From the NCBI GenBank assembly GCA_035384565.1, contig DAOOIT010000002.1, forward strand, positions 8,579-72,578: a DNA stretch of 64,000 nucleotides. Direction: 5' to 3'. This document shows positions 5,486 to 51,522 of this stretch, piece by piece. The position numbers and the translations under genes are program-made. The notes beneath the pieces were generated by a model that saw nothing but the letters and a program-made list of their open reading frames with translations, had not been told where the DNA came from and did not search any database. Numbering within the stretch: position 1 is the first letter of the stretch; every line of letters begins with the position of its first letter. The DNA is from Planctomycetota bacterium. GTDB lineage: Bacteria > Planctomycetota > PUPC01 > DSUN01.

Positions 5486-5570
5486 TCTACTGCCCTAACA
5501 CGCGAAGAGTCTCATACCGGGCCTCGCCCCTGCGCAATCACGTCGGCTCTCGCCGCAACAAACCCGGGGC

Positions 5571-6464
5571 TCACCGGTACTGCGGGCATCGGTCCTCCCC
5601 AGGCTGCGCCCCAGGGTGGTGGCGAACAGGTCCGGGGAGCCTCCAGCGCCGCACGGCAAGGCAGAGGCCCAGGTAACCGCCGATGGTCCGGAGAATGCGC
5701 ATACGGCTCTTGCCGCGGCGGGCGGCGGTGTCGAGGCGAAACGGGACTTCGGAGATGCTGAGGCGCAGGTTCATTGCCTTCTTGAGCATCTCGACGACGC
5801 CCTCGAACCCAGCGCGCTCGATGATTCGAGGGCCGTAAGCAGCCTGGAGGGCAAGGACGGCCCGCCCGCGGAAAACGCGGAAGAAGGAACTCATCGTGTG
5901 GATGCCTGTCATACCCAGGAGACCCCGAAGCACGATGGCGTTCGCCCCGAAGCTCAGGAACCGCCGCCACCAGCTTGTGTGCTCAAACCCGCCACCGTAG
6001 GCGTAGGGTGAGGCGAGGACGACGTCGAGGTCCTCCCGTTCGCACCGTTCGAGCATGCGAAGAAGAGTCTCGACTCGCCCCGTGTTGTCACCCTCCACCG
6101 TGGCGACGAAGTCCGTGGGTTCGAGGTCGCCGGCGAGGTGTTCGAAGGCGGTCCCGAACGCACTCCCTGGTCCCATGTTTCCCTCGTGCTTCAGTACAGC
6201 CAGAGCGAGGCCATGGCCCAGGGCCGCGGCCAGCTCGGGTGTGCCATCGTTGCTCCCATCGTCCACGAGGATGACGCAAGTCCCGTAACGCCCCGCTTGC
6301 GAAGCCGCAAGTTCCCGGAAACTGGCGAAGAGACCCTCGAGATTGGGGGCCTCATTGAGCACCGGTACGATAACGTGCAACGATCGTAACGGGGCGTCCG
6401 CGGCATAGCGCGCACCCTCAAGCATGTTAGCTCTCCGAAGACTCTGTGCTGGGATTCCCATCAA
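5571..6464 (-). CDS. GT2 polyprenyl-phosphate sugar synthase (DPM1/GtrB-like)
   Basis: LHVIVPVLNEAPNLE...CVILVDDGSNDGT...VVLASPYAYGGG: classic GT-A/DXD family 2 similar to dolichyl-/undecaprenyl-phosphate mannose/glucose synthases. True start is probably Met14 (about 6425), giving a 1-nt gap from the upstream gene. Confidence 0.8.
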   Translation of the reverse strand: MMGIPAQSLRRANMLEGARYAADAPLRSLHVIVPVLNEAPNLEGLFASFRELAASQAGRYGTCVILVDDGSNDGTPELAAALGHGLALAVLKHEGNMGPGSAFGTAFEHLAGDLEPTDFVATVEGDNTGRVETLLRMLERCEREDLDVVLASPYAYGGGFEHTSWWRRFLSFGANAIVLRGLLGMTGIHTMSSFFRVFRGRAVLALQAAYGPRIIERAGFEGVVEMLKKAMNLRLSISEVPFRLDTAARRGKSRMRILRTIGGYLGLCLAVRRWRLPGPVRHHPGAQPGEDRCPQYR

Positions 6465-7386
6465 GAACCCCTCGAAGCGCCATGGGGATCATGATTAGGA
6501 ACGCGGGTAGAAACTTCGCTAGTTCGCGCAGCAGCCCATTGAAGAAGAACAGGATCGTATAGGGGAGCAGGCTTAAGAACGCCAGGCGATGGAATGCGTC
6601 GCTCTTCCTGAACGCGACCGTAGACAGAAGGGCAAAGCCCGCCACCTCCACTGTCCATAGTGGGACAATCGATGTCAACAGGTCGTGCACGTTGGAGTTG
6701 GACGCGATGTGGAAGGCAGTGGTGAACTGAGTCGGCTTGGCCCCGTAGTACGCCCGGGTGCCAAGCATAGCGACCGCCCACAGCAGGAGACTCGCTAGAG
6801 CGAGAAGAATCCCGCGTCTGTCCAGCCTCCGTTGGGCGACGAGGTCGATGACATACCACACAATGAGAAAGGCTATCTGCTCGCGATTGAGGGCTCCCAA
6901 AAAGACGATCACGGGCAAGTACTGAACCCTGCCACTTCGGAACAGGGCCAACCCCAGTGTGTAAAACCAGAGCGTGATGAAATCGCCTTCCATGTAGTAC
7001 CCTGTTACCGATAGGGGTATTACAACCTGCAACAGAAGCACGCCCACTATCGCGCCGCTCTGGCCGAAGCCTCTCCACAGGTACCGGTGAAAGCAGATGA
7101 AGATGGCCAGAAACGTAACCATGGAGATCGACGCATAGGAGAAGACATGCTGCATACGCCTGTTCCGCACAACTGTTGAGGCCATGGTTTCGACAACCGT
7201 TCCAAGCAGGGGTTTCAGAATCCTGAACTGATAGGGCGATTGCGCCTGCCCGGTCAGGATCCTGTCAACATGTGCGATACGCTTCTCGACGTTTGGCAAT
7301 ATCACGGTCCTGCAGACATAATATGTCGATATCATCGCCAGCATCACGGGTACTACAAGACCATGTAGCCCTCTCGGTTGCATCGC
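6427..7386 (-). CDS. Polytopic membrane protein of unknown function (candidate flippase/GtrA-like partner)
   Basis: Hydrophobic ORF (MISTYYVC...FLAIFICFHRYLW...LLLQVVIPLSVTGYY...). The listed ORF reaches 7647, but the first ~85 codons are Arg-rich and non-protein-like; start proposed at MQPRGLHG (about 7386). Confidence 0.4.
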   Translation of the reverse strand, partial: AMQPRGLHGLVVPVMLAMISTYYVCRTVILPNVEKRIAHVDRILTGQAQSPYQFRILKPLLGTVVETMASTVVRNRRMQHVFSYASISMVTFLAIFICFHRYLWRGFGQSGAIVGVLLLQVVIPLSVTGYYMEGDFITLWFYTLGLALFRSGRVQYLPVIVFLGALNREQIAFLIVWYVIDLVAQRRLDRRGILLALASLLLWAVAMLGTRAYYGAKPTQFTTAFHIASNSNVHDLLTSIVPLWTVEVAGFALLSTVAFRKSDAFHRLAFLSLLPYTILFFFNGLLRELAKFLPAFLIMIPMALRGVLDGNPSTESSES

Positions 7387-7643
7387 CTCCAACCAGCGCC
7401 GACAGCTGGTAAGCCTGTTGAGACACCACCGTCCTCGCATGGTATTGACTGCTCCATGCCGACTGCTAGCTCTCGTAATCCTGTGGGGCGCTGCAAGCCT
7501 GCACTGCTCCGACAAGGCCGTTCTCCTGCATCCTCGGGTCATCAGGCGGGGCGATTGATTGCGCGCGCTCAGTTGGTGAGGAGTATGCCGACGTTGGCGC
7601 TCTCGTTCAGGACGCGGCGATGGGGATAAGGCGTTCCATCGGC

Positions 7644-8642
7644 TCACACGGCTTCAGTGGGAATCTGGAGGTTCCGCCGGGCTTCGGCGAGGCAGAGGCG
7701 AATGGCGTCCGCCATCGAGTGCTTCGGCTCGTAGCCGAGCAGGGTGTGGGCCTTGGTAAGGTCGGGCCGCCGTCGCATGATGTCTTTGTACCTGCCGAAG
7801 ACTTCCTGGAAGGGGATGAACTTGAGCTTGAGGGGCCTCCCCGTGTCGGCCAGGCGGTGGATGAGGCGCGCGGCGTCGAGGACGCTCATCTCCTCGGGGC
7901 TGCCGAGGTTGATGATCTGGCCGACGGCCCGCTCGTTCTCCATCGCCAGAATGGTGCCCTGGATGAGGTCGTCCACGTAGGCCATCGAGCGGGTCTGGGA
8001 ACCGTCGCCGTGGATGGGCACCTCCTCATGGCGCAGGATCTTGTGAATGAAGATGGGGATGTGGCCGCCGACCCAAGTGAAGCTGGAGCGAGGGCTGAAT
8101 CCGCCGAAGTAGCGGAGGACGACCACGGGCACGGCGTAGTCGTGATGGTAGGCGAACGCAAGCTGCTCGCCGTATAGCTTGGCCACGGCATAGCTCCAGC
8201 GGCGGATGAGGCTGGGGCCGAGCAGCAGGTCGCCGTCCTCGCGGAAGGGCAGGTCGGGCGACATGCCATAGACGTCCGACGTGGAGGCGAAGATGACCTT
8301 CTTCCGCCACATCCGCGCGGCATCGAGGACGTTCTCGGTGCCCTGGGCGTTCACCTTGAGGGTGGCCATGCTCGAATCGGCCTCGGCCACCTTCTTCACG
8401 GCAGCCAGATGCACGAGGGTGTCGGCCTCCCGGGCGAGAATCTTGAGGGTGTCCATGTCCAGAATGTCAACGGGGTAGAACCTGAATGCCTCGTTGGCGA
8501 GCTGATGCCGGATGTTCTCCATCCGGCCGAAGGACATGTTGTCAATACCGATGACGCGGCAGCCGCGCCCGAGCAAGGCATCAAGCAGGTGTGAGCCGAT
8601 CATCCCGGCCACGCCCGTAATCAGTACTACTCCATCTGACAT
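7644..8642 (-). CDS. NAD-dependent epimerase/dehydratase (extended SDR; UDP-sugar 4-epimerase / UDP-glucuronate decarboxylase family)
   Basis: N-terminal Rossmann VLITGVAGMIGSHLLDALL, catalytic YAVAKLYGE (YxxxK), 332 aa. Confidence 0.85.
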   Translation of the reverse strand: MSDGVVLITGVAGMIGSHLLDALLGRGCRVIGIDNMSFGRMENIRHQLANEAFRFYPVDILDMDTLKILAREADTLVHLAAVKKVAEADSSMATLKVNAQGTENVLDAARMWRKKVIFASTSDVYGMSPDLPFREDGDLLLGPSLIRRWSYAVAKLYGEQLAFAYHHDYAVPVVVLRYFGGFSPRSSFTWVGGHIPIFIHKILRHEEVPIHGDGSQTRSMAYVDDLIQGTILAMENERAVGQIINLGSPEEMSVLDAARLIHRLADTGRPLKLKFIPFQEVFGRYKDIMRRRPDLTKAHTLLGYEPKHSMADAIRLCLAEARRNLQIPTEAV

Positions 8643-8817: not shown

Positions 8818-10056
8818 TTAGCCACCCGCAAGCTGTTGATAGATCTCGCTCACCGCCTCAGCCTTGCGCTCGAAGGTGAACAGGCCCGCGCGCTCCAGCG
8901 CCCCGGCGGCCAGCTTCTGCCGCTCGGCCTCGTGCGCCCAGAGATGCCCGAGGGCGTCCGCGAACCGAGAGCAGATGGAGGCCCGGCCCTCGACGGGAAC
9001 CTTCACGCCACACTCCGAGGTCACGACGTCGGCGAAGCCGCAGTGGTCGAGGCACACGACCGGCACGCCCTGTGAGAGGGCCTCCATCACCACCGTCGTC
9101 GTGAGGTCCTTGATGCTGGTGAGCGCGAAAACGTGGGAGTTCCCGAGGAGGGCGATCGCCTGCGGCCGCGGCAGGCGCCCGTGCCACGTGCAGCGGGCGT
9201 CCACGTCCAGCCTTCGGGCGATGCGCCGCCACTCCGTGGTGCAGGGCCCCTCGCCCAGGATGTGCAGCTCCCATCCCACCGAAGCCGGCAGGCGCGCGAC
9301 CGCGTGCAGCAGGAGCGGGAGCGCCTTGCCGGGGTCGTGCGCGCCGCTCCACGAGATGCGGAGCGGCTCGCCGTCGAGCCGAATGGAATGGGCCGCCGCG
9401 ATCGGCTCCGGAGGGGCCGTCTCGCAGATGACCTGGCTGTCCTCGCCATAGTGCCTCTGAATCTCGCGCCGAATGCCTTCGGTGGCGGCGATGATTCCGC
9501 CGCGAGCCCTGGGGAAGGCTCTCCTGGGGCGAGGCAGCCACCTCTTGTGCAGCGTGTTGAGCACGTTCCGGCTGGCGAAATGGACGAGTCCTCGCAAACC
9601 CAGCATCGGCAGGAGCCGCCAGGGGGTGTTCTCCAAGCCGCCGATCGGCCCCCAGACGAACGGCACGTCCAGCCTCCACAGGTAGCCGGGCTCTCGGAAG
9701 GTCACCCACGTGAGCTGGTGCACCAAGTCGAAGCCCGGGTCCCGTTGAAGCTGGAGGGCGAGCCGGTAGGCGTCCCTCTGCCAGCGCCGGCAGGTCCAGA
9801 GCAGGGCCGGCTTCCACAGGCGCGAGAGCCGGAGATAGCGCGTCCTGGGCACATAGCAGAACTGAAGATGGTCCCGAAGCGCCGGATCGCGATGCAGTTC
9901 CGCCTCGATGTTGGCGCGGAAGAGATCGCTCGTGAGGACCAGGAGGTCGTGGTGCCTGGAGAGCGCCTTGACCCAACCCCAGCCCACGCCCGGCTCCGAC
10001 CCGCGCGTCGGGTCGCAGGAGTAGGCCGAGACGAGGACTCTGAGACGCCGTTTCAT
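8818..10056 (-). CDS. Glycosyltransferase family 4
   Basis: Real start at MKRRLRVLVSAYSCDP (ATG 10054-10056; the 573-aa track ORF has a spurious Arg/Gly-rich N-extension); ...GFADVVTSECGVKVP... GT-B C-terminal domain. ATGA overlap with the upstream YdjC gene. Confidence 0.8.
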   Translation of the reverse strand: MKRRLRVLVSAYSCDPTRGSEPGVGWGWVKALSRHHDLLVLTSDLFRANIEAELHRDPALRDHLQFCYVPRTRYLRLSRLWKPALLWTCRRWQRDAYRLALQLQRDPGFDLVHQLTWVTFREPGYLWRLDVPFVWGPIGGLENTPWRLLPMLGLRGLVHFASRNVLNTLHKRWLPRPRRAFPRARGGIIAATEGIRREIQRHYGEDSQVICETAPPEPIAAAHSIRLDGEPLRISWSGAHDPGKALPLLLHAVARLPASVGWELHILGEGPCTTEWRRIARRLDVDARCTWHGRLPRPQAIALLGNSHVFALTSIKDLTTTVVMEALSQGVPVVCLDHCGFADVVTSECGVKVPVEGRASICSRFADALGHLWAHEAERQKLAAGALERAGLFTFERKAEAVSEIYQQLAGG

Positions 10057-10814
10057 CCACCGCTCCGAGCCGAAGGTCCCGTGGCCGCGAGCCGCAGGAG
10101 GTCCGCACAGTCGGCCAACGGACGCTGGCTCAGCCTGTCCACAAGAACCCCCGAGGCGTCGTACATGGGATGGATCATGACTTCCGCGGACTGCGTCCGC
10201 GGCGTCACGCCTCTCCTGGCGAGAAGGTGCCGGTAGTCCTCGGCCGAGCCGAAGTAGTTCGTCCACGCGAGCCCCGCGCGTCTCAGGCGCAGGTTCGCCA
10301 GCTTGCGATAGGCCCAGGTGCCGAGGGATCGGCGCGGCCCGCAGTTCCGGGCGATCCGCACGTGCGGAATGCCCTCCTCGAGGCAGAGCCGCACCACCAC
10401 GGAGGCGATGGCCCACTCCTCGTGCACATGCTCGTGGGAGTCTGCGTGGGAGATCGGAATGCCACGCCTGCGGCACGCGGCAACCTGCGCCCCGAGTTCC
10501 CCCCGCAGCGCCGTCGTTTCGCTCGCGGACAGCCGCCACACGTGGGGGCGTTTGCGCAGGACGAAGGCGCCGTCTTCGTTGCAGAACCGCCGGCAGCGTC
10601 GGATCTCCTCGGTGAGGGGCAGGCCGTCAGTGAGGACGAGATGAACGCCCACGCGATGGGCAAGCCCGCGCTCGTGAGCCAGCTCGCACGCCTCCTCGAA
10701 CCCGGGCATGTTCGGCATGATCGTGGTGTCGGAGCAGTACCCGCGCTCGAAGCTCTCGAGGACGGCCCGGTTCACGTTCCCATCGAGCCCGAAGTCGTCG
10801 GCATTAACGACCAT
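10053..10814 (-). CDS. YdjC/ChbG/HpnK-family carbohydrate deacetylase
   Basis: MVVNADDFGL...HRVGVHLVLTDG... is the hallmark N-terminus of YdjC-like polysaccharide deacetylases; 253 aa. Confidence 0.8.
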   Translation of the reverse strand: MVVNADDFGLDGNVNRAVLESFERGYCSDTTIMPNMPGFEEACELAHERGLAHRVGVHLVLTDGLPLTEEIRRCRRFCNEDGAFVLRKRPHVWRLSASETTALRGELGAQVAACRRRGIPISHADSHEHVHEEWAIASVVVRLCLEEGIPHVRIARNCGPRRSLGTWAYRKLANLRLRRAGLAWTNYFGSAEDYRHLLARRGVTPRTQSAEVMIHPMYDASGVLVDRLSQRPLADCADLLRLAATGPSARSGG

Positions 10815-11730
10815 CGCGCTGGCCTCGGGGCAGCCCGCGGCAGATGCCCGCCAGATTGCCGCAGACCCGTTTGAAGCTCTCGCCCGGCCTTCGGCAGGTC
10901 ACGACTCGCCCGATGGAGAGCAGCATCCTGGCCAGCAGGCCCAGGTAGCACCGTGGCACGGAGAGCCCGTGTTTCCTCACCAGGTAGAGGCGGTTGCGTA
11001 CCTCGAGCTTCCCGAACCGGTAGGCATCGAGTCTTCCTGAAGGCGAAGGGTAGTGGCAGAAGCCCGCCTGCGCGACCACGGCCAGCCTGTACCGCCTGCT
11101 GACGGAGTAACTGAAGTCCACGTCCTCGAGATAGCTGTAGCCGTCGAACCACTCGTCGAAGCGGAACTCGTCAAGCACGGCCCGACGCCACACCGAGGCG
11201 CCGCTCGGCAGCCACTCGGTGAACATCGTCTCGGACACCCTGCCGACGATGGTCTGCCACCCGCTGGGCATGACCACGCCTTTCTCCTTGCTGTAGAGCC
11301 CCAGCCAGGAAGCCAGGCGGGAGGACTTGAGCCAGGATGCGGCTCTCGGCGGGCAGTTCGCCCAGTTGAAGGCCGCGCCGCCGACGTCTGCCGGGGCTTC
11401 CTCCCAGAAGCGCAGCATAGCCTCCATCGCCCCGGGCTCCAGCACGGCGTCGTCGTCCAGGAAACCGATCAGCCCGATGCCGCGGTCCACGGCGTCCACG
11501 CCCGCGTTCCGTTGCCGGGTCGCCGAAGGAGGCAGGTGGCGGACGTAGGCGACGTTCAGCGCGCCACGCTCCGCCGCGACCCACTCGACCGGCTCCTCGC
11601 TCGCATCCACGATCACCACTTGGGAGGGCGGACAGGACTGGGCGGCCAGGCTCGCCAGCATGCGGCGGAGGTCGTCCGGCCGGTCCTTCGTCGCCACCAC
11701 GAGGGCCACCTTGTTCCGGAAGCTGCTCAT
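10804..11730 (-). CDS. Glycosyltransferase family 2
   Basis: Start at MSSFRNKVALVVATKDRPDDLRRMLASLAAQ (ATG 11728-11730), ...VVIVDASEEP..., DXD-like FLDDDAV. Overlaps neighbours by 4 and 11 nt. Confidence 0.75.
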   Translation of the reverse strand: MSSFRNKVALVVATKDRPDDLRRMLASLAAQSCPPSQVVIVDASEEPVEWVAAERGALNVAYVRHLPPSATRQRNAGVDAVDRGIGLIGFLDDDAVLEPGAMEAMLRFWEEAPADVGGAAFNWANCPPRAASWLKSSRLASWLGLYSKEKGVVMPSGWQTIVGRVSETMFTEWLPSGASVWRRAVLDEFRFDEWFDGYSYLEDVDFSYSVSRRYRLAVVAQAGFCHYPSPSGRLDAYRFGKLEVRNRLYLVRKHGLSVPRCYLGLLARMLLSIGRVVTCRRPGESFKRVCGNLAGICRGLPRGQRDGR

Positions 11731-12911
11731 GCGGCCGAATGCCCGCCCATGCGCCTCCTCTGGAGGAACCTCGCCACGGCGTCCCGCATGCCGGCCGTGA
11801 AGCTCGGGATCGAGAATGCCTTGCCCCGCTCGGCCAGGTGCCGGCACAGCTCCTGCTGAAGCTCCGTCCGGCGCAACACGGTGTCAATCTTGGCCACGGC
11901 ATCGTCCAGGCCGGCAAAGGTGAGCAGGGGATGAGCGACAATCTCCGCCTGTCCACCTTCAGAGGGCACGAACACGATGCTGCCTGCCTTGACCAGTTCC
12001 GCCACGGATATGCCAAAGCCTTCCCGCGGACAGGCGTTGATGCCAAAGCGATGGGTGCTGAGCAGCTCCCTCTTCGTCTCCCCGCTGCACGGCCCTCGGG
12101 CTGTAACCCAGCGCCCCTGCTCGGCGCAGAGGCGGCTGACCTTTCGTCCGTACGGGTCGCGCCCGATCGCCCCTGCGATGTGCAGGTGGATGTCGTGGCC
12201 GCGGCTCCGCACGTGCAAGAGCACAGCGATGATGTCCTCGATGCGCTTCTCGGGCGAGATGCGCCCGATGTAGACGAAGCCATGCTCCTTCGCGGGGAAT
12301 GGGACCTCGGGGAAATCCCCCGCCACGGGCGGGTACAGCACGTCGGCCTCCACGCCGTGACGGCGCTTCATCAGGGCGGCCGTCCACTGTGAATTGGCCA
12401 GGAACAGGTTGTCGCGTGCGAAGGGTTCTCGTCCCGATGGCTTCCGAAGCATGCGGGCGCAGGCGAGGTAGCCTCTGCGGAGGGGGTTGTCGCGGTACGC
12501 CAGGCCCGCCCACCCCGGAGCAGGGGGGGTGCACGCCCGTCGGAGCGCCTCGTCCCAGGAGAAGTCCGCAATCAGGTGGATCCCGGGAACCCCGAAATCC
12601 GCGACGTTGTACCCGCTGATGAGCACGTCGAAGTCGGCCGCCAGCGCGCGGCACAGGCGGGCGTGGATCGCTCCACGCCAGGCGGCGAACCGGGCGGTCC
12701 GCCCCAGGAGGAAAGAGAGGGGATGCCGCCTCACGCGGAAGTCTTCCGGGGCCAGCCGCGTCGCGTAGGCCTCATTCAGCCTGGCGATGTCCACTGGCCC
12801 ACAGGTGGCCAGAGTTACGTCATGCTCGTGCCGGAGCTCTTCGATTGCCCACAGCACGGCCGCCTCGGAACCGCCGAGCCGAAGAGAGGGATGGGCGATG
12901 GCAATCCTCAT
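11727..12911 (-). CDS. Glycosyltransferase family 4
   Basis: Start MRIAIAHPSLRLGGSEAAVLW (ATG 12909-12911); C-terminal REGFGISVAELVKAGSIVFVPSEGGQAEIV. Confidence 0.8.
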   Translation of the reverse strand: MRIAIAHPSLRLGGSEAAVLWAIEELRHEHDVTLATCGPVDIARLNEAYATRLAPEDFRVRRHPLSFLLGRTARFAAWRGAIHARLCRALAADFDVLISGYNVADFGVPGIHLIADFSWDEALRRACTPPAPGWAGLAYRDNPLRRGYLACARMLRKPSGREPFARDNLFLANSQWTAALMKRRHGVEADVLYPPVAGDFPEVPFPAKEHGFVYIGRISPEKRIEDIIAVLLHVRSRGHDIHLHIAGAIGRDPYGRKVSRLCAEQGRWVTARGPCSGETKRELLSTHRFGINACPREGFGISVAELVKAGSIVFVPSEGGQAEIVAHPLLTFAGLDDAVAKIDTVLRRTELQQELCRHLAERGKAFSIPSFTAGMRDAVARFLQRRRMGGHSAA

Positions 12912-12915
12912 TGCC

Positions 12916-13719
12916 TCATGATCCGCCGCCCGGAGGCAGTGCCTGGGCATGAGCGCCCGGATGCCTCCGGCAGACGTAGATCACCTCGTCCTCGTCCAGA
13001 GCATGGCGGGCAGCATCCAGGTGGCGAACGTAATCTTCGACTGCGACGGCGAAGCCCGCGTCCTCCAGCCGGCTCCTGTAGTCGAGGCCATAGAGCCTGA
13101 CCTCGTCGGAGAAGCCGAAGTGCCTGGCCCGTTCCTCAGGGGAGAAACCGGGGTCCTCCAGAGTGTGCTCGCGCCGCCGGTCTACATCCACCTGAAGGAT
13201 GGCATAGCCTCCGGGACGGAGCACGCGGTACACCTCGCGAAGCGCGCGGCGGTCATCCTCCACCTGCTCCAGCACGTGGTTGGCGATGACGACGTCGAAC
13301 GTCTCGTCGCCGAAGCCGATGTGTGTGATGGACATGACGAGATCGGGCGCCTCGCACAGCTCGTGGATGAACGAGACCATCAGGTCGGCCGTCACGTACT
13401 CGATGGCCGGATGCCGGCGAATCTCGCGCGCGAGACACCGCTCGGGCGCGAAGTGGAGCACACGCAATCGGCTCCGGAAGAACGCCATCCGGTCCCTCAG
13501 GAACAGGTAGAGCAGGCGGTGCCGCCCGAGAGACAGGCAGGAGGGGCACCAGTCGTTCTCTCTGCCGCCGAAGGGCAGGAACTTCGAGAAGCGATGGCCG
13601 CAGATCGGGCACTCCACCCGGTTGCCGCAGCGGTACCACAGACCCAGGAGCATCCGCTGGCCGCTGCGGAGCCCTCGGCACACGCGTGGCCCCAGGAGCC
13701 GTTTGAGAAGCCTCTTCAT
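12916..13719 (-). CDS. Class I SAM-dependent methyltransferase
   Basis: Start MKRLLKRLLG; ...VLHFAPE... DVVIANHVLEQVEDDRRALREVYRVLRPGGYAIL (Methyltransf_11/23-like motifs). The upstream part of the 456-aa track ORF is Arg/Pro-rich junk. Confidence 0.75.
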   Translation of the reverse strand: MKRLLKRLLGPRVCRGLRSGQRMLLGLWYRCGNRVECPICGHRFSKFLPFGGRENDWCPSCLSLGRHRLLYLFLRDRMAFFRSRLRVLHFAPERCLAREIRRHPAIEYVTADLMVSFIHELCEAPDLVMSITHIGFGDETFDVVIANHVLEQVEDDRRALREVYRVLRPGGYAILQVDVDRRREHTLEDPGFSPEERARHFGFSDEVRLYGLDYRSRLEDAGFAVAVEDYVRHLDAARHALDEDEVIYVCRRHPGAHAQALPPGGGS

Positions 13720-13726
13720 GCGTCGG

Positions 13727-14608
13727 TCAGCCTTCCCCCGCGCTGGCGGGCGTGGCCCCAGAGGGCGTGAAGAAGACCTCGCTCGGCGCCTCGAAAGGGG
13801 CCGCGAAGCCAGGAGGCAGGACTCCGATGTACGGCTTGCCGCACCGCGGGGCGACGGCCTGGCGGTAACAGCGGATCGCCTGACGCTTGGCAGACAGCAC
13901 CGGCGCGATGTCCAGCTTCCAGGCATTCGCCAGGCCCGGCTCGGCGAGCCGGCGAAGGGGCAGTTTGTACCATCCCCAGACCAGGTACCAGTGCACCGCG
14001 CACGGAAAGCCGCTTCGGCGAACGGCTTGCGCCACAATCTCGCTGGCGGCCGCATGGTCGGCCCAGCAGTCCAGAGGATGGGGCGCGTAGACCTCCTGGG
14101 GGGCCGCCTGGCGCAGGACCTCGGCCACCGCGGACACCGCCGTGGCAAACCCCTCCTGCCCGTTGCGGGGCAAGCGGCCGTCGGGCAGTCCAAGCCAGTG
14201 CATGGCCTGGGGGCCGAGCCCCAGGCGCGCGCCCGCCTCGCAGGCCAGAAGACGGCGCGCCCGGGCGATCTCCTCGACAGGCGCACCGCAGCAGCGCTGG
14301 TGCGATGCCTCGCCGCTGGTCAGGAAGGCCACGCCCACGCGGGCGTCGGCCTGAGCCTTGAGGGCGAGAAGTCCTGCCGTGGCGAATACCTCGTCATCGG
14401 GGTGAGGGGCAATCACCAGGGCAGGACCCCCGGGGAGGGCCTCCGGCCTGGCGCGGCGGGCCAGAACCCATTGCAGAACGCGGCGCCTCGGCGCCCCCTG
14501 CCAGGCGCGAAGCTGCGCCACAACTGTGTCGCCCAGCGCGCGTTTGAGGAGGGACTTCACCCCACCCGCCTGCACAGCCGCCTTCGCGGTGAGAGGCAAC
14601 GGACGCAT
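13727..14608 (-). CDS. PIG-L/LmbE-family N-acetylglucosaminyl deacetylase
   Basis: LVIAPHPDDEVFATAGLL...H (the PIG-L zinc-binding HPDDE motif); start MRPLPLTAKAA (ATG 14606-14608), overlapping the stop of the upstream gene. Confidence 0.75.
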   Translation of the reverse strand: MRPLPLTAKAAVQAGGVKSLLKRALGDTVVAQLRAWQGAPRRRVLQWVLARRARPEALPGGPALVIAPHPDDEVFATAGLLALKAQADARVGVAFLTSGEASHQRCCGAPVEEIARARRLLACEAGARLGLGPQAMHWLGLPDGRLPRNGQEGFATAVSAVAEVLRQAAPQEVYAPHPLDCWADHAAASEIVAQAVRRSGFPCAVHWYLVWGWYKLPLRRLAEPGLANAWKLDIAPVLSAKRQAIRCYRQAVAPRCGKPYIGVLPPGFAAPFEAPSEVFFTPSGATPASAGEG

Positions 14609-15444
14609 CACTCGTACTTCCTGAGTCCGCTCAGTTCCAGAAGCACATGGCCGAGGAATCGCGGGCCGTCCAGAAAGTCCCGACGCCAGACCTTTCTGGG
14701 TTCGTGGACGAGGCGCCATAGCCACTCGAACCCGCAGCGGCCCACCCAGGCCGGCGCCCGCTTGACTCTGCCGCTCAGGAACCCGAAGGCCGCTCCGACC
14801 CCGACCGCGACGGGGACCCTCAAGCGTTTCTGGTGCTCGGCAATCCACCTCTCCTGCTTCGGCAGACCGAGCCCGACCCAGAGAACATCGGGCCGGGCCT
14901 CGTTGATCATCCTGACATGGGCTTCATCTTCCTCGGGCGAAACGGCCCCGAAGGGCGGGGAGAACGTGCCGGCCACCCCGTGGTTCGGGTACTCGCGCTC
15001 CAGACGCTGGCGCAGAAGGGAGAGGGTCTCCGGTCGGTCCCCATAGAAGAAGCTGCTGTAGCCGCGTTCGTTTGCGCGCTCGAGGAACGCCCGCATCAGG
15101 TCGGCCCCGGGAATGCGCTGGATGCCGCGGAATCCCTTCAGGCGAGCGACCCAGACGGGCGCAATCCCATCGGGGACCCAGAGATCCGCCGAGTTCAGCA
15201 CGGCCTTGAGGTCCGGGCTCTTGTGCGCTTCCCAGATGCCGTGGAACCCTGTGACCACGATCCGCCGGCACTGGTGTTCGCGCGCCTCGACCCAGCCGGC
15301 CATCTCCTGGATCACCTGGCGAGGGCTCGTCAGGTGCACCCGGGCCCCCAGGATCCTGACCGCCGGAGCGCGCGTTCCTGCGCCGCCGTCTGCGTTCGAG
15401 GCGCGGGCGTGGGTGTCAGGCGATGGGCAAGAGCCTGCGGGCAT
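14608..15444 (-). CDS. WecB/TagA/CpsF-family glycosyltransferase (GT26)
   Basis: ...VTGFHGIWEAHKSPDLKAVLNSADLWVPDGIAPVWVARL...VLWVGLGLPKQERWIAEH... matches the GT26 family (TagA/WecG); start uncertain between 15444 and 15483. Confidence 0.8.
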   Translation of the reverse strand: MPAGSCPSPDTHARASNADGGAGTRAPAVRILGARVHLTSPRQVIQEMAGWVEAREHQCRRIVVTGFHGIWEAHKSPDLKAVLNSADLWVPDGIAPVWVARLKGFRGIQRIPGADLMRAFLERANERGYSSFFYGDRPETLSLLRQRLEREYPNHGVAGTFSPPFGAVSPEEDEAHVRMINEARPDVLWVGLGLPKQERWIAEHQKRLRVPVAVGVGAAFGFLSGRVKRAPAWVGRCGFEWLWRLVHEPRKVWRRDFLDGPRFLGHVLLELSGLRKYE

Positions 15445-16285
15445 CCTGTCCCTCGGGATTCGAGGAGAGCGCGACGAAGTCATACCCGCTCTCCAACTGA
15501 GCGGAGTCGCGCAGCTCCCGCAGTTGGACGCGGAAGAGGTTCTTCTGCCTGATCTGGAGAAATCGGTATCCCAGGCGAGACATCAACCGCACCTCCCCGC
15601 GCTCGAAGAAGGGCTGGCTCTTGTACGATTCGAAGATGATGGCCGCGGGGCGGTTCGAATCGAGCAGGCCGAGCGCGCCCGCCAGCACCTCCTCCTCGTG
15701 CCCCTCCACATCGAGCTTGAGGAGCCGGAGCGGGGGCAGATGCAGCGCCTCGAGATACGCGCTGGCTTGCCGCACCTGCACCGGAGTCGGGTCCGCCTCG
15801 GGGCCGGGGCGGATGAAGGAGCCGCAGCCTCGGTTGCCACGCGGGATGAAGAGGTCCACCTCACCATCCTTGTCCGACAGCGCGAGCGCGTGCGTCTGGA
15901 CATGGCGGAAGCCATTCAGCTCGGCCGACCGCCGGATGCACTCCGCCAATTGCGGCTGCGGCTCGAAAATGTGCACCTGCCCGGTGGGGCCGACGAATGT
16001 CGCGGCATACATGCCCACTTCGCCATAGCCGCCGCCAACATCCAGGAAGCAGTCGCCAGGCCGCAGGAGGCGCCGGCAAATCCACGTGATCTTCCTGTCG
16101 TAATCGCCCCAGTAGTAGATGGCCCGGCCGCAGTAGTCGTTGGGGTGCACCAGCAGGCGCGGGCCGCCTCGCAGGCGCGTCAGCACCAGGTTCCCATCCT
16201 GGGTGAGCCGGCGAGGCAGGGCCATGTGGGCCAGGCGCACGCCGCCTCTGTAGAGAGGGTAGGCGCGGATGAGCGCCCTGACCAT
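15416..16285 (-). CDS. FkbM-family methyltransferase
   Basis: Start MVRALIRAYPLYRGG...; ...CFLDVGGGYGEVGMYAATFVGPTGQVHIFEPQPQ...LKLDVEGHEEEVLAGALGLL... (Methyltransf_21/FkbM). Confidence 0.7.
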   Translation of the reverse strand: MVRALIRAYPLYRGGVRLAHMALPRRLTQDGNLVLTRLRGGPRLLVHPNDYCGRAIYYWGDYDRKITWICRRLLRPGDCFLDVGGGYGEVGMYAATFVGPTGQVHIFEPQPQLAECIRRSAELNGFRHVQTHALALSDKDGEVDLFIPRGNRGCGSFIRPGPEADPTPVQVRQASAYLEALHLPPLRLLKLDVEGHEEEVLAGALGLLDSNRPAAIIFESYKSQPFFERGEVRLMSRLGYRFLQIRQKNLFRVQLRELRDSAQLESGYDFVALSSNPEGQDARRLLPIA

Positions 16286-16326
16286 CGCCCGAACCAGGGG
16301 ACGCACCAGCGGAACTCCCCCATCGC

Positions 16327-18072
16327 TCAGCGCGCTCTGCGCCCCAGGCGGCGCCGCGCGAACCTGGCGACCTTGACAGCCAGCGCCCCCAGGAAGAGCG
16401 CGGCCAACTCGACCCCCTTGCGCACGGCCCCGATGGGCCGGAACTTCAACCTCACTCGCCCCGCATCTCCGAGCGCCCGGAGCTGAGCAGCAGCCTCGTA
16501 GGCAAAGCAGATGGACCTTGATAGCGTCGGCATCGAGAAGCCGAAGAGGTGCCTGTAGACGGGGTAGGCCTCCGCCAGCCTGCGGTAGCTCCCGAAGCCC
16601 CACCAGGGGTGATAGAAGGGCAGCTTCTCCAGCCGCCAGTTTCCCTCGAAGGCGTCGCGCCCGCGGGCGGTGCGGCGGAGATCGCGGAAGTCGTCCTGGG
16701 ATATGCCCAGCTCGGAGAACAGAACCCTGTTGACGTACGCATTGTACAGCCGCTGGCCCAGCCTGAGGCGGAGGGGCACCCGCGCCCAGAAGTCGCACAT
16801 GGCGCTGTCCCACAGCGGGATGCGCCAGTCATAGCCCCAGAACTCGTAGGCGCGACAGAAATTGACGATGAACTTCGCCTGGCGTTCCTGCCACTCCCAG
16901 CACTCGAGGGCGCTGGCCGCCTCCTCGGGGGTCTCGGTCGGCAGGTCGCCAATGCAGCGAAGGACCCGTTCCGCCATCACCGCGTGGAGAGCGCCGCGGC
17001 GCCGAGGCCAGCGCCACAGGCCGTAGTGGTCGTGAAGCAGTATCCTCAGCAGGTCCTGCGCGCCAACGGTCGTTCTGTCCGCAAAGTCACGTGGGATGTG
17101 GCTGCCGGAGATCACGTCGCCCGTATGGCCAGGGACTATAACCGCGTCGTCCGGGATCTTGCCGGCTGCTTTCAGTGCCCAAATCGCTGGCCAGTCCTGC
17201 ACACTGGCCAGGGAACTGAGTCCGCCGCGGTAGCTGTGGTATGCCTTGGCCTCCTCGCTGAGCAGTTGCTGCCGCCATTGCGAGCAGCACGCTGGCACGA
17301 ACTCCCAGGCGTATCCCAGCTTGAGAGCCACGGCTTGGCTGACCCTCGACTCCCAGTTGTTGGGACGGCCATAGGAGAGGCACAGGACGTCGCTCCTGCC
17401 CAGGCGGCGAAGCATGGCCACGACGAGCCGGGAATCCTGGCCTCCGCTGAGCGGCACAACCAGGGGGCGGCCTGCCGTGGAGGCGAGAAGACGCTCGAAG
17501 ACGCCCACGAGCATCTCATCCATCGTGGCAAGGAGCGCCTCCTCATTTGCCTCCAGGTAGTCGCCATGTACGAACCGGTAGTACCGGTGCGTTCTCACCC
17601 GGGGCACACGCTCGCGCTTGTCGGCGATCAGGCATTCCCCAGCCTGCAACTGCTTCACCCTGGGGCAGAGGGTATCTTGCCCCGTGACATACCCCGTGAG
17701 GAGGAACTCCGCCAGGGCGTCCTGATCCGCCGCATCGTCGGCCACCTGCGATCGCACCCATTCGGCGTCGTCACTAACGAACAGCTTCCCATTGGATTCG
17801 GCGTAGAAGAGCGGCCGGCTGCGCAGCCGATCGACCGCCGCGAAGCACACGCGGTCGGTCTCCACAGCAAGAGCGAACGAGCCGTTCAACCCACGCAGCC
17901 AGCGGCAGACCGCCTGTGCCTCCGGGGCTTCCTCGCCGAGGATTCGCGATAGCGCGCCTGCGAGAGCGGTTCCTTCGAGCAGCGCGTTCGGGCTGAAGGC
18001 GAAGCCAGTAGCCGCCACATGGTTAGCCTGCGACGTACTCGGCGAGCAGGGCTGCGCCAAGTCACAGAGCAT
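16327..18072 (-). CDS. Asparagine synthetase B-like amidotransferase (PP-loop ATP pyrophosphatase)
   Basis: DRLRSRPLFYAESNGKLFVSDDAEW (AsnB glutaminase-domain motif) and PLSGGQDSRLVVAML (the SGGxDS PP-loop). N-terminus is M-L-C-D, so there is no Cys2. Confidence 0.8.
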   Translation of the reverse strand: MLCDLAQPCSPSTSQANHVAATGFAFSPNALLEGTALAGALSRILGEEAPEAQAVCRWLRGLNGSFALAVETDRVCFAAVDRLRSRPLFYAESNGKLFVSDDAEWVRSQVADDAADQDALAEFLLTGYVTGQDTLCPRVKQLQAGECLIADKRERVPRVRTHRYYRFVHGDYLEANEEALLATMDEMLVGVFERLLASTAGRPLVVPLSGGQDSRLVVAMLRRLGRSDVLCLSYGRPNNWESRVSQAVALKLGYAWEFVPACCSQWRQQLLSEEAKAYHSYRGGLSSLASVQDWPAIWALKAAGKIPDDAVIVPGHTGDVISGSHIPRDFADRTTVGAQDLLRILLHDHYGLWRWPRRRGALHAVMAERVLRCIGDLPTETPEEAASALECWEWQERQAKFIVNFCRAYEFWGYDWRIPLWDSAMCDFWARVPLRLRLGQRLYNAYVNRVLFSELGISQDDFRDLRRTARGRDAFEGNWRLEKLPFYHPWWGFGSYRRLAEAYPVYRHLFGFSMPTLSRSICFAYEAAAQLRALGDAGRVRLKFRPIGAVRKGVELAALFLGALAVKVARFARRRLGRRAR

Positions 18073-18166
18073 ATTGATGTCTGCCTGGATATGCGTGCCT
18101 CAGTTGCCAGAGAAGTCCTATCGCGCACTGCAAGCAGCGTGGTCTGGTGTTGGAAGGCCGCATGAG

Positions 18167-18775
18167 CTACCGAACCCCGGCCCTGGCCACCACGACAAGT
18201 GTCTTGCAGAACCACTGGCGCAGGTAGCCAGGCAACCTGCCGAGGCCCCAGTATCTGGTGGAGTCCGTTACGTAGTGCATCGCCACCTCCGTGAATCCCT
18301 CCCTCGAGAGAAGATGTCGCAGAGTCCCAGGGCAATACCAGCAGGTGTGCTCATGGTTGAGCGAGACCCTTCCGTACCTCAACACTTCCCAGACCAGTTT
18401 CGGGTAGAAGGCGTTCGGCGTGGTCAAGATCAGCGCTCCCCCAGGCACGAGATGGCGTTTCATGTTCCTCAGGAACAGACCCGGGTTTGACAGGTGCTCG
18501 ATCACCTCCCCCGCGACAATGCAGTCGAACTCCTCGCCAAGCGTCACCATCTCAGCATCGCCGTGGAGAATGCTGTACCCCTTGCGACACAAAGCCTGCA
18601 CACCACGCTCATCTTTGTCGAGGCCAATGACCCGCCGCGCGTGCTTGCGGACAATGTGATGAAGCCACGCGGGGTTTGCTTCCCTGTCGGCATCTCTGCC
18701 AATGCACCCCACATCAAGCACGTTCTTCCCTCTGATGGTCTCCGCAACGATGCTCTCTCTTGTCTCCCTGCCCAT
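18167..18775 (-). CDS. Class I SAM-dependent methyltransferase
   Basis: VLDVGCIGRDAD...DCIVAGEVIEHLSNPGLFLRNMKRHLVPGGALILTTPN (motif I/post-I/II); 202 aa. Confidence 0.8.
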   Translation of the reverse strand: MGRETRESIVAETIRGKNVLDVGCIGRDADREANPAWLHHIVRKHARRVIGLDKDERGVQALCRKGYSILHGDAEMVTLGEEFDCIVAGEVIEHLSNPGLFLRNMKRHLVPGGALILTTPNAFYPKLVWEVLRYGRVSLNHEHTCWYCPGTLRHLLSREGFTEVAMHYVTDSTRYWGLGRLPGYLRQWFCKTLVVVARAGVR

Positions 18776-18850: not shown

Positions 18851-20431
18851 TTACCTCGAAACTGCATAGACCGTGCCGTCGTCGAGCTCCGCGACCTCGT
18901 GCAACCTCACCCTCTGCCGAAGCTGCTCCACTGTGAAGAGGTGCCTCGCCCGCCCTCGCCTGAACCACACAAGATATGCCTTCTCCTCCTCCGGCCACGG
19001 GCCACTGAACGCGTGGGATTCACCCATCGCTTCGCGCGAGTTGTACATGCCCTTTGCAGGGCTCTCGCTTGCGGGCATCTTTGTCTGAATGTAGAGCGCG
19101 TAAGGCGCGTTGCTGTAGACTCTGCACTCGGGCTCCAGAGGATGGCTCCGTAGCCACTGGATGGTTCGGCTCTGCGTCCACGGCTTGCTGGTGTATCCCT
19201 CTGGCCCCTCTCGCCACAGAGCCAGGAGACGAGACCCACTCGCGACGACCGGGTATAGCAGCCATATTGCGGCGCCTACAGCCAGCAGGCGAGTTCGCAT
19301 CGGGCGAGCGGGGCGGAGATTCCGTATGTGTCGCTCAAACTCCCCTGCGGCACGGAGGAGGAGTACTGTCAAGGGGACATACACAGGCGATACCAACCTG
19401 CTGTTAGGCGGGTCGTAGGCTGTGGTGGCCGAGGTCACAGCTAGGAATAGGACGTAGACCCCGATGAACACGAGAAGGGGAGACATAGACGCCCCGGAAC
19501 CTCCTTGGCCGGTGCCGACGTGTTCGGCTACCAGGGTTGGCACCGCAATGCAACACAGGGCAAGCTGGGGCGACAGATGCACAAGCCTACAGAACTCAAC
19601 GATGGGGACATACCACGACACAATCACAGCGGCAACTAGCATGCAGGTCTGATGCAGCCCGTATACGGAGCTTGCACGTGGCCCCAAGAGTGTGCCCGTC
19701 AGTGCATAGTTCCTGATCGCCCATGCACCCAGCGGAGCTGCCGCTATAGGCAGCAGGAGGCAGACATGCGCGATCCGCGTGCGCCATTCGCGCCCTACAG
19801 CGAAGAGGATGACCGCCACGCCGGTGGCGATGATCGTCACGCCGGCATACCTGGTCGCAGCAGCGAAGCCGGCAGCCATGGCGGCTGCCATCAGGAAGCG
19901 GACCCGCGGCTCTCGCAGATACGACTCCACGGCCAGCAGGAAACACACGGACAAGGCGATGAAGAGGGGCTCGGACCATGCCATCACTGACACAGAGAGC
20001 AGCGGTTTCGAGAACAGCACGAGGGCCTGCACAAGGACCACGAGAACCGGCGAGGCTCTGAGGTGCCGGGCGGCCAACTCCCCTGAGAGGTACACGATCA
20101 GACCGAAGAGCACGGCATTGACCACGTGAGCCGAGCCCAGGGGGTCAGCCCCAGTACTCCACTGGACCGTTGCCAGGAGCATTGGATAGAGTGGGGGCTG
20201 CATGACCAGAGGGGTGCCATCCCAAATGGTGGCGCCCGCTCCCGCGGCCATGTGCCTTGCTGCTGCAATATAGCCCACGGAGTCGGGCGAGATTCCGGCC
20301 CCGTGATGGCCGATGCAGAACAGGACCATGCATGTCCCGATGAGACCCAGCAATCCGCCGGCTATTCTACATCTCACCGGGTGTGTCATTGCAGACCTCG
20401 CTGTCGGGGTCCGAGAGCCATCCACCACCAC
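18851..20431 (-). CDS. GT-C membrane glycosyltransferase, ArnT/PMT-like (lipid-linked-sugar-dependent)
   Basis: 526 aa, about 11 TM helices; first loop SPDSVGYIAAARHMAAGAG resembles ArnT's D-E-x-R-Y-A-E-I-S-R-E-M loop; soluble C-terminal domain. Start possibly at MTHPV (about 20389). Confidence 0.6.
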   Translation of the reverse strand: MVVDGSRTPTARSAMTHPVRCRIAGGLLGLIGTCMVLFCIGHHGAGISPDSVGYIAAARHMAAGAGATIWDGTPLVMQPPLYPMLLATVQWSTGADPLGSAHVVNAVLFGLIVYLSGELAARHLRASPVLVVLVQALVLFSKPLLSVSVMAWSEPLFIALSVCFLLAVESYLREPRVRFLMAAAMAAGFAAATRYAGVTIIATGVAVILFAVGREWRTRIAHVCLLLPIAAAPLGAWAIRNYALTGTLLGPRASSVYGLHQTCMLVAAVIVSWYVPIVEFCRLVHLSPQLALCCIAVPTLVAEHVGTGQGGSGASMSPLLVFIGVYVLFLAVTSATTAYDPPNSRLVSPVYVPLTVLLLRAAGEFERHIRNLRPARPMRTRLLAVGAAIWLLYPVVASGSRLLALWREGPEGYTSKPWTQSRTIQWLRSHPLEPECRVYSNAPYALYIQTKMPASESPAKGMYNSREAMGESHAFSGPWPEEEKAYLVWFRRGRARHLFTVEQLRQRVRLHEVAELDDGTVYAVSR

Positions 20432-28194: not shown

Positions 28195-28373
28195 AGGGCC
28201 TCCGGCATGGGTCTGCGGACCTACAGTGGGCTGTGGTGTCACAGAGGGCAGCCCCTAGGGGCTGGGGGCGCCAGAGGGCCTCCCCTAGGAACCGGGAACT
28301 CTGGGAGAGTCTGGGAGACTTAGACCATGTTGTGGTGATGGTCTGCTGGCCTCCCAATGGGTGGGGGAGTGGG

Positions 28374-46504: not shown

Positions 46505-46765
46505 CGGGTGTGGGCCGGAATTGTAGGCGGCTGCGGGAGTTCCGAAGGAGCGAAATAGGATAGCCCAGGGCAACGCCCTGGGAACAAGACCGCCCCGCGG
46601 CAGCCCTGACAGGGCGGAATCGAGAGCTTCTATCTCGCCCCTTCAGGGCTGGACTCGTGGATCCCGCTGAACCCAGGGCGTTGCCCTGGGCTATCCCATG
46701 CGAGCCCTTCAGGCTCCAGAGACAATCACCCTGCCTGCAATTCCGGCCCGCACCCGTGCAAGCCG
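46505..46765. repeat. Nested inverted-repeat element in the divergent intergenic region
   Basis: Inner arms ggatagcccagggcaacgccctggg (about 46557-46581) and cccagggcgttgccctgggctatcc (about 46669-46693) are perfect reverse complements about 90 bp apart, and each arm is itself a hairpin (cccagggc-aac-gccctggg). Outer arms ggtgcaagccgggtgtgggccggaattg (about 46505-46532) and caattccggcccgcacccgtgcaagcc (about 46737-46763) give 18 of 19 matches in the core. Confidence 0.5.
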
Positions 46766-51368: not shown

Positions 51369-51522
51369 ACGACGCAGCACGCGGCAGGGCAAGGAGCCAT
51401 GTCATCCTGCCCTGGCCCTCTCCCATCTCACCTCTGGTGTCTCGCTCCACAGCCCGCTTTGCCATGATCCGTCTCCAGGCAATGCCGTGCGACCCGGAAC
51501 GACCCCAGCAGGAGGAGCGCCG

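Follow-up and report, generated by a model that had tools for sequence, protein, structure and literature searches.

The stretch of DNA analyzed here, a 64,000-nucleotide window from contig DAOOIT010000002.1 of a Planctomycetota bacterium, carries a polysaccharide operon in which the gene at 16327–18072 (minus strand) encodes a homolog of the asparagine synthase AsnB. Alignments indicate that this AsnB-like protein lacks the catalytic Cys2 together with the rest of the glutamine site, keeps a synthetase part with an intact PP-loop, and belongs to a family of Cys-less proteins. We consider it probable, if by no great measure, that the protein catalyzes a glutaminase-independent, ATP-dependent amidation of a uronic-acid carboxyl group on a lipid-linked glycan, within an O-antigen-like Wzm/Wzt operon that also encodes two de-N-acetylases, one of the PIG-L and one of the YdjC family. 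The main point reaches beyond this operon: a very widespread branch of AsnB has no glutaminase and is labelled "asparagine synthase (glutamine-hydrolysing)", which is misleading.

The AsnB-like protein and its Cys-less family

A first-pass annotation, made from the sequence alone, had placed an AsnB homolog with the PP-loop SGGQDS and the motif AAVDRLRSRPLFY at 16327–18072. Both motifs were confirmed, at residues 209–214 and 78–90, respectively, and the protein matched the Pfam family Asn_synthase weakly (PF00733, 29.5 bits against a cut-off of 21). The same annotation had reported that the nucleophilic cysteine of the N-terminal nucleophile (Ntn) amidotransferases is missing, and had asked whether an alternative upstream start could supply it. 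The open reading frame (ORF) begins MLCDLAQPCSPS, which reads M-L-C-D, and an in-frame TGA lies at 18100–18102, nine codons 5′ of the ATG, with no start codon between them, so that no start can yield an N-terminal Cys and an upstream Met-Cys start was ruled out. The publicly annotated protein (P0001, 563 residues) starts 18 codons further in and is likewise without Cys.

The absence of the cysteine therefore stands, but it understates the loss. On the NCBIfam AsnB profile, residues 58–257 of the protein correspond to profile positions 116–311, with ~58 N-terminal profile positions missing. GATase_7 scored 18.8 bits, below its cut-off of 25; TIGR01536, the model for glutamine-hydrolysing AsnB, scored 53.5 bits against a cut-off of 267.1, and TIGR03108 (eps_aminotran_1, WbpS/WbqG) scored 56.2 bits against 816.9, over residues 61–252 only. 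As a canonical comparator we used an AsnB homolog from another polysaccharide cluster (L090), which starts MCGFAG; in the alignment, its motifs MCGF, RHRGPD, RLSIxD, NGEVYN and SDTEV have no counterpart in the window protein and its relatives. By these alignments the first ~60–70 residues of the glutaminase domain are gone, with all glutamine-site motifs. Since no glutaminase active site is present, the enzyme cannot itself make ammonia from glutamine. The synthetase part is kept: PGHTGD aligned to AsnB DGQGADE, WRIPLWD to SRVPFL, and the RxPxxD segment to residues 412–439 of human ASNS. An extra, lineage-specific C-terminal hydrophobic helix (residues ~548–580) occurs in the window protein and its three closest relatives.

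A PDB search with the single sequence of the AsnB-like protein returned no match, and matches were given only by the family profile and by a fold search. For the latter, an AlphaFold model was built from 25 homologs (predicted local distance difference test score 83; predicted template modelling score 0.87) and searched with Foldseek. The repurposed superfamily members TsnB9 and beta-lactam synthetase matched best, ahead of human ASNS, E. coli AsnB and carbapenam synthetase (CarA), and the matched structures included 1ct9, 6gq3 and 9b6c; the N-domain alone gave weaker matches to Ntn amidotransferases. As modelled, the window protein retains the two-domain AsnB fold. Beta-lactam synthetase and CarA are likewise without a working glutaminase.

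A word-indexed search with the AsnB-like protein returned 770 relatives, the best 120 of which are 38–80% identical and span many bacterial phyla as well as methanogens. Cys2 is present in none of these 120, while the PP-loop motif S[SG]GxDS is present in 113. In an alignment of 25 members, 36–80% identical to the window protein, 50 positions are invariant. A pseudogene or truncated remnant was rejected on the strength of this conservation and of the absence of Cys2 from all 120 homologs. An exhaustive profile search recovered 2,482 cluster representatives (50% identity) at E ≤ 1e-30 from Bacteria and Archaea, and canonical Asn synthases scored 16–60 bits on the family profile, over its first half only. 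Most members carry an 'NSGIKW'-type motif 10–20 residues from the start, in a segment that is deleted in the window protein and in P0002; at this site five of the 120 (P0011, P0013, P0026, P0052 and P0053) read CGI or CGF, which, by its sequence, may be what is left of the MCGI start of AsnB, in a position that has become internal.

The neighborhoods of family genes were read in 78 loci from species-representative genomes and in individually read loci, with ORFs clustered unlabelled and named by Pfam afterwards; the counts below refer to 59 non-redundant bacterial and non-Methanosarcina archaeal loci and are descriptive, with no matched background and no statistical test. A Wzx flippase gene is present in 24 loci, at a median distance of 6 bp from the AsnB-like gene (first clustering), a uridine diphosphate (UDP)-sugar 6-dehydrogenase in 21 and a WbpE-like aminotransferase in 20. 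WbpD-like acetyltransferases (14 loci), WbpB-like oxidoreductases (10) and 2-epimerases (8) are less frequent, and at least two Wbp-like genes occur together in 16; FemAB-like and DUF7033 genes were found in 8–9. In one locus (L004) WbpA/B/D/E-like genes lie directly upstream of the AsnB-like gene, and in another (L007) the order is WbpB/D/E, Wzx, AsnB-like. Two natural Wzx::AsnB-like fusions were also found (P0305, 1044 residues; P0427, 1006 residues), with a flippase of the Polysacc_synt_3 family, although a read-through in gene calling is possible for these; judged from their sequences, they suggest a joint action of flippase and AsnB-like enzyme on lipid-linked units.

A separate arrangement was seen in seven Beta- and Gammaproteobacterial loci (L027, L041, L050, L056, L058, L060 and L079), where a Cys-less member lies near full-length Asn_synthase paralogs (281 bits). 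Genes for a CE4 deacetylase and for TPR proteins occur in overlapping subsets of them. These loci, which we take to resemble PEP-CTERM/exosortase exopolysaccharide loci, may have two different AsnB-type enzymes acting in one pathway.

A genetically tested relative is known from P. gingivalis, where PGN_1234 (asnB; 'WbpS' of the Wbp/Vim pathway) stands in the gene order wbpE(porR)-wzx(porS)-asnB (Veith et al. 2020, PMC7468200). Its deletion abolishes the uronamide form of the linking sugar, and the protein is 17% identical to P. aeruginosa WbpS and E. coli WbqG (PMC7468200; identities from Table S3). The complementation primer starts ATGAAAATAGTCTCAGACTTCACT (PMC7468200) and encodes MKIVSDFT, a start without Cys. 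Searching metagenome contigs for the published primer recovered an allele of PGN_1234 at a locus (L087) with the described gene order, in which a 542-residue ORF begins MKIVSDFT and ends IDRPLPL, in accord with the reverse primer. In BLASTP this allele was collinear with the window protein (residues 23–458 against 21–461; 26% identity over 466, E 7e-34), and it scored 196.5 bits on the family profile over positions 26–469. The collinear homology and the profile score indicate, at the level of sequence, that the window protein is a distant relative of this Cys-less AsnB homolog. The family-invariant WQERQAKF and WRIPLWD read QWENIPKY and TVCMLLD in PGN_1234, which places the two proteins in different clades.

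The glycan operon and its two deacetylases

The window has a G+C content of ~67%, and its genes were mapped by codon-position G+C together with Pfam and NCBIfam scans. A single long run of tightly packed minus-strand genes, from ~31.6 kb to ~0.8 kb, forms the polysaccharide operon, with the following features in the order of transcription:

30741–31622, minus strand: UpxY/NusG-like antiterminator at the operon head (PF02357; NF033644 65 bits, below its cut-off of 100)
29212–30732, minus strand: WecA/MraY-family polyprenyl-phosphate N-acetylhexosamine (HexNAc)-1-phosphate transferase, the initiator (PF00953, 141.5 bits)
28374–29582 (ORF; true start further downstream), minus strand: Wzm ABC-2 permease (PF01061, 82.4 bits)
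26893–28242, minus strand: Wzt ATPase with a Wzt_C glycan-binding domain (PF00005, PF14524)
25955–26803, minus strand: methyltransferase (domain scan)
18851–20431, minus strand: polytopic membrane protein of 526 residues with ~12 predicted helices (no Pfam match)
18167–18775, minus strand: Methyltransf_23 methyltransferase, upstream of the AsnB-like gene (domain scan)
16327–18072, minus strand: AsnB-like PP-loop enzyme, 581 residues (PF00733)
15416–16306, minus strand: FkbM-family methyltransferase (PF05050, 51.7 bits; TIGR01444, 94.5 bits against 37.7; start from the alignment with the syntenic relative L006, described below)
14608–15483, minus strand: glycosyltransferase family 26 (GT26) enzyme of the WecG/TagA/CpsF family, starting at 15483 or 15444 (PF03808, 203.4 bits)
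13727–14608, minus strand: PIG-L/LmbE-family de-N-acetylase (PF02585, 76.2 bits)
12916–13719, minus strand: class I S-adenosylmethionine (SAM) methyltransferase (Methyltransf_11/23), start uncertain (PF08241, 54.5 bits)
11727–12911, minus strand: GT4 glycosyltransferase (PF00534, 43.4 bits; start from synteny)
10804–11730, minus strand: soluble GT2 glycosyltransferase with no predicted membrane helix (PF00535, 40.2 bits; start from synteny)
10053–10814, minus strand: YdjC/ChbG-family de-N-acetylase (PF04794, 146.3 bits)
8818–10056, minus strand: GT4 glycosyltransferase, last gene of the nine-gene block (PF00534, 61 bits; synteny with L006)
7644–8642, minus strand: short-chain dehydrogenase/reductase (SDR) epimerase/dehydratase (best matches LegB, UDP-xylose synthase, TviC and ArnA-C, all below cut-offs)
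6427–7647, minus strand: polytopic membrane protein with 9 helices (helix prediction)
5571–6464, minus strand: polyprenyl-phosphate-sugar-synthase-like (PpgS/ArnC-like) GT2 (PpgS, 44.6 bits against a cut-off of 370)
3488–5485, minus strand: PMT_2 GT-C glycosyltransferase (domain scan)

Between Wzt and the membrane protein at 18851–20431, which weakly matched the LA_3751/LA_3752 family of putative glycosyltransferases (33.8 bits, cut-off 200) and nothing else, are encoded one methyltransferase, one GT2 and three GT4 enzymes. After the PMT_2 gene, the operon ends 3′ with a GT4, a Wzy_C/O-antigen-ligase-like protein and a fucose pyrophosphorylase fragment. Because the operon holds a Wzm and Wzt pair, its gene content points to an ATP-binding cassette (ABC) transporter-dependent, Wzm/Wzt-type pathway for an O-antigen-like glycan. 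The two deacetylases, the GT26 enzyme and the WecA-type initiator had all been proposed at the first reading, and each was confirmed: PF02585 and PF04794 scored above their cut-offs, the GT26 enzyme matched PF03808 and TIGR00696, and the initiator, matching PF00953, lies ~11 kb upstream of the 10053–18072 region on the same strand. The nearby methyltransferases mentioned with them amount to four genes, at 18167–18775, 15416–16306, 12916–13719 and 25955–26803. At the level of equivalogs, the initiator scored 133 bits on the WecA model TIGR02380 (cut-off 326), and the GT26 enzyme scored 159.7 bits on TIGR00696 (cut-off 69) and 105.8 and 92.4 bits on TarA and WecG, both below cut-offs.

Nine genes, from the AsnB-like gene through FkbM methyltransferase, GT26, PIG-L, methyltransferase, GT4, GT2 and YdjC to GT4, recur in the same order on a contig of a related organism (L006), with proteins ~80–93% identical to those of the window, and the gene starts in the block agree with this synteny. 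The gene upstream of the block differs, being Methyltransf_23 in the window and an unrelated TylF methyltransferase in L006. The SDR, membrane protein and GT2 of the 3488–8642 stretch are absent between GT4 and PMT_2 in L006; in the window, this stretch is, by its gene content, a possible module for periplasmic decoration with polyprenyl-phosphate sugars. Because the full block was found in L006 only, YdjC, PIG-L, WecG and FkbM were rejected as family-wide partners of the AsnB-like protein. Within the block, the stop of GT26 and the ATG of PIG-L share 1 nt, the stop end of GT2 (10804–11730) runs 11 nt into the start of YdjC, and YdjC overlaps the downstream GT4 by 4 nt; no terminator or promoter splitting the block was found above chance. 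The PIG-L start could also be a GTG at 14560, as judged by synteny with the relative.

Both deacetylases look catalytically competent from their sequences. The YdjC protein scored well above the PF04794 cut-off (29.7 bits; E 2e-42) and keeps the motifs NADDFG, H58 and DSHEHVH; its segments MVVNADDFG, GVHLVLT and HADSHEHVH align to the chitooligosaccharide deacetylase 7vi8 and to EF_3048 (2i5i). On the equivalog models it reached 97 bits for ChbG (NF002559, cut-off 227) and 85.5 bits for HpnK (TIGR03473, cut-off 232.6). The PIG-L protein exceeded the PF02585 cut-off of 28.2 bits (E 4.3e-21), and its APHPDDE and DCWADH correspond to APHPDDG and DRHPDH in TT1542 (1uan), with BshB (6p2t) aligning as well. 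Since it missed the cut-offs of BshB1 (57 bits against 182) and BshB2 (40 against 195), it is not a bacillithiol enzyme.

Relatives of the YdjC protein (45–55% identity) are encoded in polysaccharide clusters: in two of four loci the gene stands immediately after a glycosyltransferase gene, two of the four clusters include WecG, and one includes PIG-L. That one locus (L092, 7001–13332) holds YdjC and PIG-L in a single polysaccharide cluster, with Bac_transf, an ATP-grasp enzyme and HAD hydrolases, so the pairing of the two deacetylases is unusual but not unique. Relatives of the PIG-L protein (44–48% identity; L093 8001–9983, L094 8001–9892) are likewise found in clusters of this kind, of which one is a parallel NusG-WecA-Wzm-Wzt cluster, and in both a FemAB-like Acetyltransf_6 gene follows immediately, whereas in the window and L006 a SAM methyltransferase takes its place. 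The amine exposed by PIG-L is perhaps acylated in the relatives and methylated here, judging by gene position alone; this is a hint in favor of the N-methylation or re-acylation of freed amines suggested at the first reading.

Several further features of the window were recorded. Third-codon-position G+C is ~0.68–0.85 in the glycan genes (3400–28300) against 0.86–0.95 beyond 32 kb, and from this lower value the glycan cluster may reflect horizontal acquisition or a different codon pressure. A positive GC skew of 0.2–0.37 at 28100–30200 coincides with the minus-strand genes for the membrane proteins Wzm and WecA. The 32–64 kb part carries sugar-uptake, GFO/IDH oxidoreductase and glycoside-hydrolase genes, and the window contains no tandem repeats. 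Rfam placed a transfer RNA at 51283–51365 on the plus strand (60.4 bits), overlapping the start of a long ORF (51343–55038), and gave a borderline match to the Acido-Lenti-1 small RNA at 46538–46582 on the minus strand (38.7 bits against a gathering score of 37).

Proposed reaction and alternative readings

The pathway sketched here assigns a step to each conserved component; all of its substrates, the order of its steps and the nitrogen donor are what we infer. The WecA-type enzyme would make undecaprenyl-diphosphate-HexNAc, to which GT26 would add an N-acetylmannosamine (ManNAc)-type residue, possibly the uronic acid ManNAcA. PIG-L and YdjC would de-N-acetylate two different lipid-linked HexNAc residues, PIG-L in conjunction with GT26 and YdjC in conjunction with GT2, and the exposed amines would stay free or be modified by the methyltransferase encoded after PIG-L. 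The AsnB-like enzyme would bind ATP at its PP-loop and adenylate the carboxylate of a sugar, most probably that at C6 of a hexuronic acid, while this sugar is attached to a lipid or a nucleotide; free ammonia or some other amine would then resolve the acyl-adenylate to an amide. The membrane is the probable site of action of the enzyme, in view of the Wzx fusions and adjacency elsewhere and of the C-terminal hydrophobic helix here. The glycan would be built on a polyprenyl carrier and exported by the Wzm/Wzt ABC transporter.

WecG of E. coli transfers ManNAcA, and the GT26 enzyme, encoded two genes downstream of the AsnB-like gene, could by analogy supply that residue. Against the proposed uronic-acid amidation, however, weigh several observations. 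The NCBIfam scores of GT26 do not separate a ManNAc donor from a ManNAcA donor. No UDP-sugar 6-dehydrogenase or Wbp gene was found in the 64-kb window, nor, within 10 kb in L006, a UDP-sugar 6-dehydrogenase or Wbp uronic-acid pathway (L006 has one lone match to a WbpD-like hexapeptide acetyltransferase, and no Wzx); no uronic-acid synthesis gene that would supply the carboxylate substrate lies in the window or near the L006 block. The placement beside wzx and Wbp uronic-acid genes that marks the family at large is thus absent from both the window and L006, and the operon uses Wzm/Wzt without Wzx, unlike most family contexts. In Methanosarcina (23 loci among L013–L061) the gene is a solitary copy with housekeeping neighbors on the opposite strand and no polysaccharide genes. 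Finally, the homology to PGN_1234 is remote (26%), and together with the motif differences this makes the transfer of function from PGN_1234 uncertain. The first-pass annotation had suggested an ammonia-dependent or repurposed amidotransferase that amidates a uronic acid as WbpS-like enzymes do. This idea gained independent support from the Cys-less family, its Wzx and Wbp links and the homology to PGN_1234, and as a prediction it holds up in the main; corrections to it are the distance of the protein from canonical WbpS/WbqG (TIGR03108) and the absence of a uronic-acid gene from the window and the syntenic relative.

The other ways of reading the AsnB-like protein differ in what the acyl-adenylate would react with, or in whether a glycan is involved at all. 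It might be an amide ligase that joins the adenylated carboxylate to an organic amine, either an amino acid or a sugar amine freed by a deacetylase, giving an amino-acid amide of the uronic acid or an N-acylated or amide-bridged sugar. The closest folds, those of TsnB9, beta-lactam synthetase and carbapenam synthetase, belong to enzymes whose nucleophile is not ammonia derived from glutamine, the truncated N-domain that is retained could bind a substrate, and the gene stands two genes from PIG-L in a conserved block; moreover, the PIG-L relatives are coupled to FemAB-like re-acylation and no such acyltransferase is encoded here. We nevertheless think a ligase unlikely: outside L006, YdjC and WecG lie near none of the family loci and weak PIG-L-like matches were found in two loci only, a rarity which implies that a deacetylase is not a family-level partner; the sole genetic precedent, PGN_1234, gives a primary amide; and loci with a family member and FemAB or DUF7033 already have acylation enzymes of their own. 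The literature searched gave nothing specific on asparagine-synthase-like genes that might account for amino acids in amide linkage to galacturonic acid, and a further lead, an archaeal threonine-attaching AsnB homolog (aglU, MMP1084), was dropped after no match was found there. A ligase would, if real, be a more novel outcome than ammonia-dependent amidation. In its most far-reaching form, in which the Cys-less proteins make up a distinct enzyme class that acts at the membrane alongside glycan export, as the Wzx fusions hint, and forms amides on lipid-linked glycans without a glutaminase, and in which the enzyme here uses the amine freed by PIG-L or YdjC to produce a new kind of amide-bridged or N-acylated glycan, the idea is quite improbable. 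Still less do we expect the protein to be unrelated to the glycan, as a peptide or small-molecule PP-loop enzyme of the lasso-cyclase or beta-lactam-synthetase type, or else a decayed remnant without catalytic activity. The weak Pfam score (29.5 bits), the fold matches to beta-lactam synthetase and CarA and the solitary Methanosarcina copies would fit such a role, but the 50 invariant positions in 25 sequences, the PP-loop in 113 of 120 homologs, the consistent polysaccharide neighbors, the Wzx fusions and the absence of precursor-peptide or beta-lactam genes nearby make it very hard to credit.

The place of YdjC in the proposed pathway can also be drawn differently. NaxD, a YdjC-superfamily deacetylase, acts on undecaprenyl-phosphate-GalNAc before its transfer to lipid A (review, PMC11279074), and with this precedent YdjC might, like NaxD or LgmC, deacetylate a polyprenyl-phosphate-HexNAc provided by a GT2, after which the PMT_2 GT-C would, in the periplasm, transfer the hexosamine to lipid A or to the completed glycan. 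The PpgS/ArnC-like GT2 (5571–6464) does adjoin the PMT_2 GT-C gene (3488–5485), and L006 has a PMT_2 gene a short distance past YdjC-GT4. Yet the YdjC gene is translationally coupled to the other GT2 (10804–11730), a soluble enzyme without membrane helix or similarity to ArnC or PpgS, and on this account we rated a NaxD-like role lower than a step on the growing lipid-linked glycan. The PpgS match of the first GT2 is weak (44.6 bits against 370), and no PpgS/ArnC-like GT2 was called in the stretch of L006 that was read; a NaxD-like role thus seems doubtful.

P. gingivalis "WbpS" and thousands of "asparagine synthase-related" proteins share an architecture that is unable to hydrolyse glutamine, which raises the question of where the amide nitrogen comes from, and this offers a handle for annotating the large family. 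For Planctomycetes, whose surface glycans are, to our knowledge, little studied, the operon leads one to expect an O-antigen-like polymer that is methylated, partly de-N-acetylated and perhaps amidated. Amidated uronic acids and free or N-modified amino sugars alter bacterial surface charge, and through it immune recognition, phage receptors and resistance to cationic peptides.

Comparison with known systems

From its gene content, the system would combine known kinds of enzymes, namely glycan de-N-acetylases and a WbpS-like carboxyl amidation. The deacetylases resemble PIG-L/MshB/BshB on the one side and NaxD/ChbG/HpnK on the other in their Pfam families, in their metal and catalytic motifs and in the position of each gene behind a glycosyltransferase gene, and they differ from these enzymes in that every equivalog score lies below its cut-off. 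In the relatives of the PIG-L protein (L093 and L094), the pair of a deacetylase and a re-acylation enzyme is analogous to VimE/VimA.

With E. coli AsnB and human ASNS, the AsnB-like protein shares the two-domain fold (Foldseek E 1e-12 to 1e-14) and the SGGxDS PP-loop, but it is without the Cys1 nucleophile and the glutamine-site motifs, and its gene context is polysaccharide synthesis rather than amino-acid metabolism. In structure, the protein comes closest to TsnB9, beta-lactam synthetase and carbapenam synthetase (E 5e-16 to 1e-12), which use acyl-adenylate chemistry; their identity to the window protein is 12–20%, and they serve secondary-metabolite pathways, a context absent here. The canonical WbpS/WbqG enzymes (P. 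aeruginosa O6, E. coli O121, H. pullorum) are also of the AsnB superfamily, lie in glycan clusters, are genetically tied to the conversion of HexNAcA to HexNAcAN (PMC6025236, PMC7468200) and presumably share the PP-loop chemistry. They belong, however, to the full-length glutamine-hydrolysing class, whose glutamine-site motifs the window protein lacks. PGN_1234 has the same short Cys-less N-domain, PP-loop (LSGGFDS), helical C-terminal part and polysaccharide-cluster setting as the window protein; it acts in a Wzx-type pathway, whereas the window gene lies in a Wzm/Wzt operon beside FkbM, GT26 and PIG-L, without Wbp genes, and encodes the extra C-terminal hydrophobic helix.

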